A stretch of 10,929 bases of DNA from Parcubacteria group bacterium Gr01-1014_20 (lineage in GTDB: Bacteria > Patescibacteriota > Minisyncoccia > UBA6257 > 2-01-FULL-56-20). The notes under the pieces were generated by a model. It made no database searches, was not told where the DNA came from, and saw only the letters and a list, made by a program, of their open reading frames with translations. Both the position numbers and the translations under genes were made by a program. Below are positions 3,699 to 6,743 of this stretch, piece after piece (position 1 is the first letter of the stretch; every line of letters starts with the position of its first letter). Location of the stretch: the NCBI GenBank assembly GCA_007376265.1, contig VMFW01000006.1, positions 1 through 10,929 of the forward strand, in the 5' to 3' direction.

Positions 3699-4457
3699 CT
3701 ACAGGTAGCCAATTTTTTTCAGCGAAGATTCGTTTTCCCATTCCCAGAGTTTTTTAGCTCCAAGGAAGGCCGCGAAGTCGTTTTGCCAATGAGGGAATTC
3801 CTGAAACTCAATATCACCCCTCATTTCACTCCAAGCGTGTTCGAGGCAGGGGAGACGACCGTTCGGTTTTATTTTTTCGATGCCACCTTTTAATCTTCGA
3901 CGAGCGCCGCAGAATTGGCAGGTTTGGATTTGGTCAATTTTTAGAATCCAGCGGGTTTCGAGGCCAGTGAATTCATCTTTCAGGGCATCCATATAGGCGG
4001 AGGTTTGGAGGTTGTAGTCACGGTAGATGGCCTGAGAGGTTTTGATATCTAAAACACCAAGCTTGCCATCAATGAAGGCCACGGCGTCGACGGTGCCGGC
4101 GTAACGGTGGTTGTGATTGACTACTCTTTTTTCCACAAAATCTTCAGTGACGTGAATGTTTTTTTGGTTTATGAAATCTTGAAACGATTTTATCGCTGGT
4201 TGGATTTTGGGATCGTTTTTTGGCTCTCGTCCCAAAAGGATGGCTTCGACGGCTTCATGAACTGCCGTGCCTTCGCTGGCGGATTTATTTTTTACAGACT
4301 CGCCTTCGGCAAAATTTTTCACACCCGCGTAAAATCGGTAAAGAGCCGGTTTGGCTTTAATATCAACAATTTTGGTGACGCGAGGGTACCAAACGCCACC
4401 CACGTCATAGCCGTTTTTTTCTTTGAAGGTTTCGCTAGTTTGAAAATCGTTATACAT
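3699..4457 (-). CDS. PD-(D/E)xK superfamily nuclease, Cas4/RecB-nuclease-like (252 aa), with a C-terminal Cys/His cluster
   Basis: Motif I is GTAVHEAVE (G-x3-H-E-x2-E). Motif II Asp is in GTVDAVAFIDG. Motif III is LDIKTSQ (D-x-K). The QxxxY motif (QTSAY) is characteristic of the RecB/Cas4 nuclease clade. The C-terminal segment is CQFC...PCLEH. No cas1/cas2 or repeat array lies nearby. Confidence 0.65.
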   Translation of the reverse strand: MYNDFQTSETFKEKNGYDVGGVWYPRVTKIVDIKAKPALYRFYAGVKNFAEGESVKNKSASEGTAVHEAVEAILLGREPKNDPKIQPAIKSFQDFINQKNIHVTEDFVEKRVVNHNHRYAGTVDAVAFIDGKLGVLDIKTSQAIYRDYNLQTSAYMDALKDEFTGLETRWILKIDQIQTCQFCGARRRLKGGIEKIKPNGRLPCLEHAWSEMRGDIEFQEFPHWQNDFAAFLGAKKLWEWENESSLKKIGYL

Positions 4458-4467
4458 AAGTGGGGGT

Positions 4468-4473
4468 ATTATA
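4468..4473 (-). promoter_or_regulatory. -10 hexamer TATAAT lying 10 nt upstream of the nuclease ATG (leaderless-type arrangement)
   Basis: The minus-strand sequence aagTATAATacccccacttATG was read directly. The 121-nt intergenic region has no SD. Confidence 0.35.
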
Positions 4474-4578
4474 CTTCTTTTCGTTCTGTGATTGAACTTA
4501 TGATTTGGTTTGGGATTGATGAGTTTCGGTTGATTTTATGATTGGAGGGATGTTTTTACGAAAAGCAGCAATTTTGTT

Positions 4579-5181
4579 TTACCCCAGGGATTCTAAGACG
4601 GGGACTGGGTTTACGTCTTTTCCCTTCGGGTTCGGGCCGCAGCCGTTTTCTTGATCCATTCTAAAACCATCTTTCTTGAAGACTGAAAAATGCAAGTGGG
4701 GCGCGGTCGAGAGACCGGTGCGGCCGACCTCTCCAATTTTTTCTTTGAGGTCAAGATCCTGGTTCTCTTTAACACTGATTTTTGATAGATGGGCAAAAAG
4801 AAAGAAAAAGTCGCTTTTGTCGCTCTCGACAATTACAAATTTCCCGTACCCTCGTCTCGGACAGTAAAGTTCTTGATTGCCGACTGCCATCACTTTGCCC
4901 TTGGTTGGTGTTAGGACGGGAGTGCCGAGTTTAGCGGGAATATCGATGCCGTTATGTCGCTTGCCGGCAAGTCTTATTTGAGCAAACTCCGTTCGGCCGT
5001 ACCCTTGAGAAATGTAAACAGTGCTGTTTTTTCCGGGTAGAAGCGGAGAATTTTTCAGTTGGGCCGACGAGTCTGTTTTTGAGTATTCACCGCGAACGAT
5101 CAAGCCAAGGGTTTCAAGGGTAGAACTAATCGCAACAAGAGAAAAGAATGTAAATATAAGGAGTAAAAAAAACTTACCCAT
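4579..5181 (-). CDS. M23 (LytM-type) peptidoglycan metalloendopeptidase with an N-terminal signal/anchor
   Basis: HNGIDI (H-x-x-x-D) and PHLHF (H-x-H) are the M23 zinc motifs. The ATG at 5181 directly precedes the signal peptide MGKFFLLLIF and overlaps the murC stop (ATGGGTAAG), so it is preferred over the GTG at 5220 given in the track. Confidence 0.8.
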   Translation of the reverse strand: MGKFFLLLIFTFFSLVAISSTLETLGLIVRGEYSKTDSSAQLKNSPLLPGKNSTVYISQGYGRTEFAQIRLAGKRHNGIDIPAKLGTPVLTPTKGKVMAVGNQELYCPRRGYGKFVIVESDKSDFFFLFAHLSKISVKENQDLDLKEKIGEVGRTGLSTAPHLHFSVFKKDGFRMDQENGCGPNPKGKDVNPVPVLESLG

Positions 5182-6556
5182 GGGAAGGAAGGAGGGAGGG
5201 CGTGTAATCGACAATGTCACCGGCGCCCATCATGATGATACATGAATCATGAAGTTTAAAACCTTGATTATCGAGGATTTTGGGTAGGAATTTATTGATC
5301 CGGTTAGGGGAGGGGAGATAGTAAGCCTTTTTTCGTGGATATTTTTTGCGGATGGCTTCGACCAGCTTTTTTGAGGTAAAAGTTGAGGTGACTTTGTCTC
5401 GGCCAGCAACTTCGTAGACGGGAATAATGATGAGAAAATCAGCTAGTGAAAATGATTCGGTAAATTCTTTGAAGAGAGATTTAAGGCGTTTAGCTTGGTG
5501 GGGTTGGTAGACACAGATAAGTTTTTTTTCAGGGAATTTTTCTCGAAAGGCTTGGAGGGAAGCTTTTATTTCGGTTGGGTGGTGAGCATAGTCATCGTAA
5601 ACGTGAATCTTGAATCTTGAATCATGAATAAGGAATCCTCTGAACTCCATCCGGCGCCAGGCGCCGGTATAAGAACCGAGCGCTTTTAGGGCAATCGATT
5701 TTTTAATTTTTAAAATCTTAGCCATGACTAAAACTGCACTCGCATTCGAGATATTGTGATCACCGGGAATTCGGAGAATTTTTTTTAACTCTGCTTTTTT
5801 GGCCGAATACCAGACAACTTCCAGACTCCGTTTTTTTGCGATTTTTGAAATAGGGGATTTAAGGGAGGAAAGATTTTTGTCGTCTTGGTTGAGTATAAGC
5901 GAGCCGCCAGGTTTAGTTCTGCTCATAAATTTCAGAAATGTTTTCTTGACGTCCGAGAGGTCTCTATAGAAATCCAAATGCTCTTTGTCGATCGTGGTAA
6001 CGATGATGACATCGCTTTCATAATTTAAGAAAGAAGCTTTCCATTCATCAGCTTCAATAACGAGCCACTTGGAACGCCCGTATCGAAAATTCTTATTGCC
6101 AAATCCTTTAAGGTTAGTGCCGATGATAACATTAGGATCGAGCTTGGCTTTGATGAGCGTGAGCGCGGCGAGCGCGGTCGTGGTGGACTTACCGTGACTC
6201 CCCGCGATAGAGATAGTCTTGTAGACTCTGGTTAGGCAGCCCAGGGTTTCGGGGTAGGAAAGGGGTTTTAGGCCCCGCTTTTTTGCTTCAACCATCTCTG
6301 GATTGTCGGGTCTAATAGCGGGGCTATAAATGACCATATTTAGGTCTCTTTTTGGCAAGTTAGCTTTTTTATGGCCAATTTTGACTCTAGCGCCCTCCGT
6401 TCTAAGGTTCGTAATGTTAGCGCTACTTGAGATGTCAGAGCCGCTCACCACCCAATTTTGAGCTAAAAACCAGCGAGCTAGAGAGCTGATTCCTATGCCA
6501 CCGATACCTATAAAATGGGCTACCGGTTTTGACTGGGGGAGGGTTTTTCTAGGCAT
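5174..6556 (-). CDS. murC: UDP-N-acetylmuramate--L-alanine ligase
   Basis: The N-terminal HFIGIGGIGISS motif is the MurC signature. The central P-loop is GSHGKSTTTA, and DYAHHP is present. The ATG at 6556 (MPRK...) is preferred over the TTG at 6562 given in the track. Confidence 0.85.
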   Translation of the reverse strand: MPRKTLPQSKPVAHFIGIGGIGISSLARWFLAQNWVVSGSDISSSANITNLRTEGARVKIGHKKANLPKRDLNMVIYSPAIRPDNPEMVEAKKRGLKPLSYPETLGCLTRVYKTISIAGSHGKSTTTALAALTLIKAKLDPNVIIGTNLKGFGNKNFRYGRSKWLVIEADEWKASFLNYESDVIIVTTIDKEHLDFYRDLSDVKKTFLKFMSRTKPGGSLILNQDDKNLSSLKSPISKIAKKRSLEVVWYSAKKAELKKILRIPGDHNISNASAVLVMAKILKIKKSIALKALGSYTGAWRRMEFRGFLIHDSRFKIHVYDDYAHHPTEIKASLQAFREKFPEKKLICVYQPHQAKRLKSLFKEFTESFSLADFLIIIPVYEVAGRDKVTSTFTSKKLVEAIRKKYPRKKAYYLPSPNRINKFLPKILDNQGFKLHDSCIIMMGAGDIVDYTPSLLPSHG

Positions 6557-6587
6557 TTGCAACGTATGTTATCTGTCGCACAATATA

Positions 6588-6689
6588 GCTTTCACGACAG
6601 TATTATTCATGAGGCTTGAGGGGTGTTCGCTATTGGGTACCCTCACCTTTTTTGTGTTTTGTGTCTATCCAGAATACTGTCGTGAAAGC
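6588..6689. repeat. Perfect 17-bp inverted repeat (gctttcacgacagtatt / aatactgtcgtgaaagc) flanking a 68-nt core, in the murC upstream region
   Basis: Arms at 6588-6604 and 6673-6689 are exact reverse complements. Neither arm extends further. Confidence 0.5.
6617..6656 (+). terminator. Terminator-like hairpin on the plus strand, tgaggg-[17 nt]-ccctca followed by ccTTTTTTgtgTTTTgtg, located inside the 17-bp inverted repeat
   Basis: The 6-bp stem at 6617-6622/6640-6645 and the T6/T4 runs were read directly. Orientation is opposite to all genes, so function is unclear. Confidence 0.25.
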
Positions 6690-6691
6690 CA

Positions 6692-6740
6692 GCAATTATT
6701 TTACAACGGCAATAAATAATAGCCATCGTAAAATAATTGC
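6692..6740. repeat. Perfect 11-bp AT-rich inverted repeat (gcaattatttt / aaaataattgc) with a 27-nt spacer, immediately downstream of the stop of the 6744-7145 gene
   Basis: 6692-6702 and 6730-6740 are exact reverse complements. Confidence 0.4.
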
Positions 6741-6743
6741 GCC

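Follow-up and report, generated by a model that had tools for sequence, protein, structure and literature searches.

The gap upstream of murC, the gene of UDP-N-acetylmuramate--L-alanine ligase, in the uncultured candidate phyla radiation (CPR) organism Parcubacteria group bacterium Gr01-1014_20 is densely filled with perfect inverted repeats, and this raises the question of what they are made from and whether they act on the expression of murC. The window analyzed here is a stretch of 10,929 nucleotides from a 124-kb contig of this genome, and its MurC and the 133-aa protein encoded next to it are 100% identical to that genome's proteins. A second assembly of the species is identical over the gap, leaving no population variation to show constraint. 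All sizeable genes of the window lie on the minus strand, in the order M23 peptidase, FemAB-family protein, Mur ligase (437 aa), 133-aa protein, murC, M23 peptidase, and then thiol-redox genes. The 133-aa protein, placed between two Mur ligase genes, belongs to no Pfam family and has only three detectable homologues among 5.8 billion proteins. A gene of similar size occupies its position in most relatives examined.

The gap measures 187 nt (6557-6743), given that murC starts at the ATG at 6556, and it is the longest in the window; the earlier note had called it the only long one of the cell-wall block. The second-longest, of 121 nt (4458-4578), separates an M23 peptidase gene from a 252-aa gene; its sole RNA match is a weak chance hit to the snoRNA family sn2429 (23 bits; gathering score, 50). 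ARAGORN detected no tRNA or tmRNA. The longest ATG frame of the murC gap, 36 aa on the plus strand, was rejected as a small gene, having no ribosome-binding signal and no conservation and containing the terminator-like site described below. The murC gene lacks a Shine-Dalgarno sequence, as do most genes of Gr01-1014_20. Several of these genes carry a TATAAT-like hexamer just 10 to 14 nt before the ATG (e.g., L001:12689, 13476, and 4944), which suggests, as far as such spacings can tell, that mRNAs in this organism are leaderless or have very short leaders. Loci used for comparison are designated here by numbers with the prefix L, and the features of the gap and its flanking genes are collected in the table.

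Table. Features of the murC gap and of the genes on either side (positions in the window)
Feature	Positions	Strand	Remarks
murC (UDP-N-acetylmuramate--L-alanine ligase)	5174-6556	-	460 aa, ATG at 6556; Pfam Mur_ligase, Mur_ligase_M, Mur_ligase_C
Conserved murC-specific box TGTCGTGAAAGCTATATTGTGCGACA	6574-6599	-	Alignment A2, 11 copies, plus two further species
Proximal arm of 17-bp repeat	6588-6604	-	Abuts the -10-like hexamer; 6588-6599 is the upstream half of the box
68-nt core between the arms	6605-6672	.	Terminator-like site with stem 6620-6643; T-runs 6648-6653 and 6657-6660
Inverted box copy ("anti-box")	6673-6707	-	RNAduplex; alignment A4
Hairpin 1	6692-6740	-	19-bp AU-rich stem, 11-nt loop
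Upstream gene, 133 aa	6744-7145	-	ORF with signal-peptide-like N terminus; last gene before the gap

Two inverted repeats dominate the gap. The perfect 17-bp repeat that had been noticed first was found exactly in place (6588-6604 / 6673-6689), with arms 68 nt apart in a unit of 102 nt, and it lies far beyond chance. Indeed, the 17-mer arm occurs only twice in the window even when three mismatches are allowed, with 0.03 occurrences expected and none of 200 shuffles reaching two. The adjacent AT-rich repeat is also real and is stronger than the 11 bp originally attributed to it, being perfect over 13 bp (6692-6704 / 6728-6740) and extending to 22-nt arms that match at 86%. No other local inverted repeat in 17 kb of the source contig is as strong as either of these two.

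Folding of both strands, proposed in the earlier note as a check, showed that the gap is far more stable than its shuffles, with a whole-gap fold of -68.6 kcal/mol on the gene strand (z of -7.9) versus -60.2 kcal/mol on the other (z of -4.8). On the mRNA strand, two 19-bp stems abut with no spacer between them. The first, hairpin 1, begins 3 nt past the stop codon of the 133-aa gene, reaches -26.1 kcal/mol (z of -7.5) on the minus strand and -18.0 kcal/mol (z of -6.7) on the plus strand, and is followed on the gene strand by UGGCUUUC. The second, stem 2, closes a 68-nt loop and is followed on the same strand by UAUAUUGU (5 U in 8). Both internal mismatches of hairpin 1 are G-U pairs on the minus strand, and the non-Watson-Crick positions of the stems are likewise G-U on the gene strand. 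This G-U asymmetry comprises few, perhaps non-independent events, and the folding tool itself favors G-U pairs.

The key to the origin of the 17-bp repeat, missed in the earlier note, is that one of its arms is, by alignment with related loci, the conserved murC promoter-like box itself. The box has a 26-nt consensus (TGTCGyrAAAsCTAyawTGTGCGACA) and lies ∼22 to 25 nt before the ATG of murC in all the relatives examined, over a range of MurC identities from 83% to 60%. It includes the motif TGTGCGAC (6575-6582), unchanged in 11 of 11 copies in alignment A2, beside a -10-like TATATT (6582-6587). In the related loci, this combination of hexamer and TGTGCGAC occurs solely upstream of murC or of an inserted endonuclease gene. 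The pattern TAnnnT fits all nine murC-proximal copies in alignment A2 (TATAAT, TATATT, or TACCTT), as well as the TACATT of L068/L069 and the TATATT of L072/L073; the two copies that precede an endonuclease gene read TTTAAT and TTTGAT. The three bases that weigh most in a -10 box (T, A, and T) are retained in the hexamer. No TTGACA-like -35 element is conserved in alignment A2 (by eye, the window has ATGAAT, a 3/6 match), and a generic promoter scan did not call the murC box.

The box nevertheless looks like a promoter, with a TAnnnT element followed by the invariant TGTGCGAC at a short distance from the ATG. This promoter-like context is strengthened because other genes carry TATAAT near the ATG and no Shine-Dalgarno sequence, and a promoter-like role is suggested because endonuclease cassettes in L003 and L054 preserve just AAAAGGTATAATGTGCGAC ahead of murC. 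The gap is best explained as the murC promoter and leader region, lengthened by ∼135 nt in this lineage. The box also holds a short internal palindrome (CTGTCG / CGACAG), which takes the perfect form TGTCGCA-N12-TGCGACA in L057, L062, and L063. Covariation in this small box hairpin is not significant (84.9% of cells paired versus 83.1% in shuffles), and the idea that the box sits within a larger hairpin in every species was rejected (flank-shuffle z of ∼0). When metagenomes were scanned for the exact box, the only match was the L055 contig already in the comparison, and a search of the literature by title and abstract found nothing on murC promoters.

Of the 17 nucleotides in the proximal arm, 12 belong to the box, and L004 has the remaining AATAC (6600-6604) as well. 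A 30-nt match between the window and L004 at 93% identity (E of 5e-7) marks the sole significant similarity in the whole gap, and the similarity of the arm and box to L055 has an E value of 3e-5. On the strength of these matches, the proximal arm is ancestral, older than whatever made the repeat. Beyond the distal arm (6673-6689), pairing with the box extends for 2 bp (6690-6691), is interrupted by a 5-nt bulge (6692-6696), and resumes in a degenerate stretch (6697-6707) complementary to UAUU...UGCGAC. The duplex between this anti-box and the box reaches -35.6 kcal/mol on the gene strand (z of -7.4) versus -29.1 kcal/mol on the opposite strand by RNAduplex. Since complementarity to the box runs beyond 17 nt and past the bulge, the whole box has been copied here in inverted orientation, with the distal arm as the well-kept part of the copy and its degenerate half included in the 3' arm of hairpin 1 (6692-6710). 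The most likely source of the copy is a local inverted duplication of the palindromic box.

The anti-box and hairpin 1 are missing from the closer relatives L003 (MurC, 83% identical), L004 (75%), L055, L057, L060, and L068. The same RNAduplex test gave no box-complementary segment in L004; an anti-box would not fit into the short spacers of L055, L057, and L060, nor is there space for it in L003 and L068. A similarity search of related loci did not recover hairpin 1 in any relative. Its absence and that of the anti-box from closer relatives means that the function of these elements, if any, is dispensable. A looser analogue was found in L062 and L063, where MurC is ∼60% identical and a segment complementary to the species' own box lies 52 to 55 nt upstream of it. 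The duplex is again better on the gene strand, both in L062 (z of -3.5 and P of 0.003, versus z of -1.4 on the opposite strand) and in L063 (z of -2.6 and P of 0.015, versus z of -1.6). These two loci represent one lineage, so the recurrence amounts to two lineages at most. The inverted copies of the window and of L062/L063 both keep a TATTTT hexamer. The window spacer shows no residual homology to the spacers of L004, L055, and L063, and that to L062 is marginal (P of 0.024). L062 differs from L063 by a 37-nt indel (L062:1348-1384) that forms a hairpin with its 3' arm overlapping the box-complementary segment, which gives L062 the same three-part layout of hairpin, anti-box, and box as the window. 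The structure upstream of murC is real but lineage restricted, its long stems being found in one species, and is built from the murC promoter-like box; it is of a known kind, that of intergenic stem-loops, and defines no new class.

We tentatively favor the reading that the two stems form a transcript-boundary structure that acts on read-through mRNA, by processing, stabilization, or pausing at the murC promoter. The earlier note had proposed a cis-regulatory RNA in the murC leader. The greater stability on the mRNA strand agrees with this proposal, but the structure matches no known family and lies mostly upstream of the likely murC promoter, and it would therefore act only on read-through transcripts. 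In the favored reading, transcripts reading through from the upstream mur genes would be acted on at the RNA level, and the stems would mark the boundary between the upstream operon and murC. Long perfect duplexes are substrates for RNase III-type processing and barriers to exonucleases. Stem 2, followed by UAUAUUGU, the -10 box as RNA, could bring read-through to a stop or a pause right at the murC promoter. Under such an arrangement, the main source of murC expression would be murC's own promoter, with the gene insulated from the operon upstream.

This boundary reading is favored because of the strand asymmetry, the place of the structure right after a stop codon, and the presence of an anti-box in a second lineage. 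Against it, a proper U-tract is lacking behind both stems, and the 68-nt loop of stem 2 is atypical for a terminator. We infer from the sequence that the box is a promoter, that the stems have a boundary function, and that the inverted copy originated by duplication. Were the stems to act on read-through RNA, a very small genome with almost no Shine-Dalgarno sequences would separate the expression of an essential cell wall gene from that of the genes upstream, and this separation would need just a copy of murC's own promoter box. In a bolder version, which we regard as a long shot, the anti-box and hairpin 1 would form an undescribed RNA-level control module of murC in Parcubacteria that have short leaders and no Shine-Dalgarno sequences. 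The hairpin would decide between a full 30-bp duplex and the 19-bp stem and would thereby set processing or termination at the junction of operon and promoter. Selection, and not mutation bias, would then account for the anti-box of L062/L063 and for the three-part layout of L062.

Stem-loops at transcript boundaries are well known, both as REP-type mRNA stabilizers, such as that of malE-malF in Escherichia coli, and as RNase III processing hairpins. The stems in the murC gap resemble these in being long and stable, in lying between two cistrons of one operon right after a stop codon, and in being stronger on the mRNA strand. They differ in that they are not a repeated family, in that one arm is the promoter-like box of the downstream gene, and in that their processing is putative. 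Compared with Rho-independent terminators, stem 2 shares a following U-rich segment on the mRNA strand, as does the core hairpin, which is followed by U6 on the other strand; however, stem 2 closes a 68-nt loop, hairpin 1 has no U-tract, and the core hairpin is at chance level.

The main alternative, which we consider somewhat less likely, is that the repeats are a functionless by-product. At a site prone to recurrent breakage and to invasion by mobile DNA, template switching or fold-back repair would have made a local inverted duplication of the palindromic box, and the perfect match over 17 bp would reflect recency or gene conversion between the arms. Such an origin is in keeping with the absence of the anti-box and hairpin 1 from the nearest relatives and with a core that has neither structure nor homologue. 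The same box, moreover, receives a LAGLIDADG gene, an IS30-like element, the ∼125-nt insert of L072/L073, and the 37-nt indel of L062. A by-product, however, leaves the consistently better stems on the mRNA strand and the position of hairpin 1 exactly after the stop codon unaccounted for, and the anti-box of L062/L063, at 60% MurC identity, would be hard to retain without selection unless it had an independent origin.

Control at the level of DNA appears improbable. Here the anti-box would be either a second protein-binding site, that is, an auxiliary operator 85 bp away from center to center, or a decayed divergent promoter running antisense into the 133-aa gene. The operator pair offered in the earlier note belongs here and is conceivable from the overlap of one arm with the promoter-like box. 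The proximal arm occupies the 17 bp that immediately precede the -10-like hexamer, the box palindrome is perfect in three related loci, and the TATTTT hexamer is kept in both inverted copies, all of which would suit a bound protein or a promoter. The arms themselves, however, are not palindromic, and the distal and proximal arms together do not reproduce the half-site arrangement of the box. The hexamer of the anti-box also lies 7 nt further from AAAGC than does the -10 element of the box, no regulator gene is present in 17 kb, and the strand asymmetry favors RNA.

A switching leader RNA of the riboswitch or attenuator type, in which hairpin 1 and stem 2 in a long murC leader alternate with the extended duplex of anti-box and box, is very improbable. 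As an alternative partner, the 3' arm of hairpin 1 can indeed take the 3' half of the box, and the three-part layout recurs in analogous form in L062. In the minimum-energy fold, however, hairpin 1 is closed and just the 19-bp stem 2 is used, and forming the extended duplex instead costs 23 kcal/mol (-45.2 versus -68.6 kcal/mol), so a thermodynamic switch is rejected. Neither state contains a terminator or sequesters the start codon, the arrangement is not conserved in near relatives, and the small box hairpin shows no significant covariation. The Rfam scan suggested in the earlier note, run with cmscan on the whole window, gave no match in 6557-6743 at E values up to 10.

The earlier note had also considered a miniature inverted-repeat element (MITE), with the 102-nt unit (6588-6689) inserted between the two genes, and this now deserves hardly any credence. 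Bacterial miniature elements of this type include Correia/NEMIS, ERIC, and RUP, and the unit resembles them in its size of ∼100 nt, its perfect 17-bp terminal repeats, and its intergenic position beside a promoter; the site is, in addition, an insertion hotspot in relatives. In contrast to such elements, it is single copy in the sequences searched and has no target duplication, and one of its "terminal repeats" is ancestral host sequence that relatives carry without the distal arm. The proximal arm being older than the repeat, the MITE reading is removed. The flanks (...TTGCTG / unit / TATATT...) contain no direct repeat that could be a target-site duplication, and the further genomic copies that the earlier note had regarded as diagnostic did not appear, as the 17-mer arm gave no second copy of the repeat in 17 kb of the 124-kb contig. 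Among 596 Gb of representative genomes, which do not include the source genome, no paired arm match was found, and the 48 single hits correspond to the chance level, itself a rough estimate. The one Paceibacterota match among them (L014) falls inside a long ORF. Viral contigs gave four single arm hits and no pair, with no hits for a 20-mer of the core or for the arm of hairpin 1. Comparison of hairpin 1, the distal arm, and the core with the endonuclease cassettes, the ends of the IS30-like element, the L072 mini-insert, and the rest of the contig revealed nothing significant.

A small RNA gene on the plus strand, or a reverse terminator in the core that insulates the locus, is most unlikely. 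The T6 and T4 runs described in the earlier note are present on the plus strand behind a possible hairpin, and the genome does use intrinsic terminators (e.g., L001:501-526 and 4397-4420). The hairpin itself did not stand up: the core folds like its shuffles (z of -0.31 on the plus strand and -0.43 on the minus strand), the terminator scan found one site versus 1.1 expected in a 1-kb region, and the 10-pair version of the stem (6620-6643) requires, by reading of the sequence, five G-T pairs. The scan found no promoter-like site on the plus strand to serve it, Rfam gave no match, and the core has no homologue in relatives and no similarity elsewhere in the loci compared.

Equally hard to credit is a miniature invertible switch, in which the 17-bp arms would recombine and the 68-bp core would flip, creating a forward terminator and altering the murC -35 region: like fimS and the cwpV switch of Clostridioides difficile, which are invertible promoter or terminator switches, the locus has perfect repeats around a short segment upstream of a cell surface-related gene, with the proximal arm forming exactly the 17-bp spacer beside the -10 element and a terminator-like site in the "wrong" orientation, but unlike them, its segment, at 68 bp, is very short for site-specific inversion, the 17 kb examined contain no recombinase gene, both assemblies show the same orientation, the hairpin is weak, and the -10 element is outside the repeats.

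The conserved box and its role as an insertion hotspot are a more solid outcome than the function of the repeat. In L003 (1134-1646) and L054 (2448-2954), a free-standing LAGLIDADG endonuclease gene (170 and 168 aa; Pfam E of 1e-20 to 1e-21) lies directly after TGTGCGAC, at a position for which window 6574-6582 represents the empty site. The cassette ends in its own segment of -10 element and TGTGCGAC, so that a promoter-like box still precedes murC. Identity is 86% between the two endonucleases and 65% between the adjacent MurC proteins, from which it follows that the LAGLIDADG gene moves between species into the box. In this respect, the partly palindromic murC box resembles LAGLIDADG homing sites. 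LAGLIDADG endonucleases of CPR bacteria have been described in rRNA-gene insertions (PMC11270868). Unlike those rRNA sites, the target here is an intergenic promoter-like box rather than an rRNA or coding sequence, and the box of the window is uninterrupted and accompanied by no endonuclease gene.

Other elements use the same site. In L005 (640-1149), from a Hainich groundwater relative, an IS30-like element with an HTH_38 and HTH_32 N terminus is inserted after the TTGTGC of the box. In L072 (∼1122-1247) and L073 (∼547-672), an insert of ∼125 nt lies between the box and the likely true murC ATG, with imperfect inverted repeats of ∼20 nt at its ends and the flanks TATGCC and TATGGC. It may be a genuine miniature element, and the gene caller read through it in L072 to give a MurC of 504 aa. 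Mobile DNA of several kinds (a homing endonuclease gene, an IS30-like element, and small fold-back inserts) has repeatedly landed in the murC-specific promoter-like box of Parcubacteria, which makes this box a useful marker for how selfish elements target promoters in uncultured bacteria. The terminal motif of the L005 element, GAATCCGAACAC, also adjoins an HTH_38 gene at L072:3492-3915.
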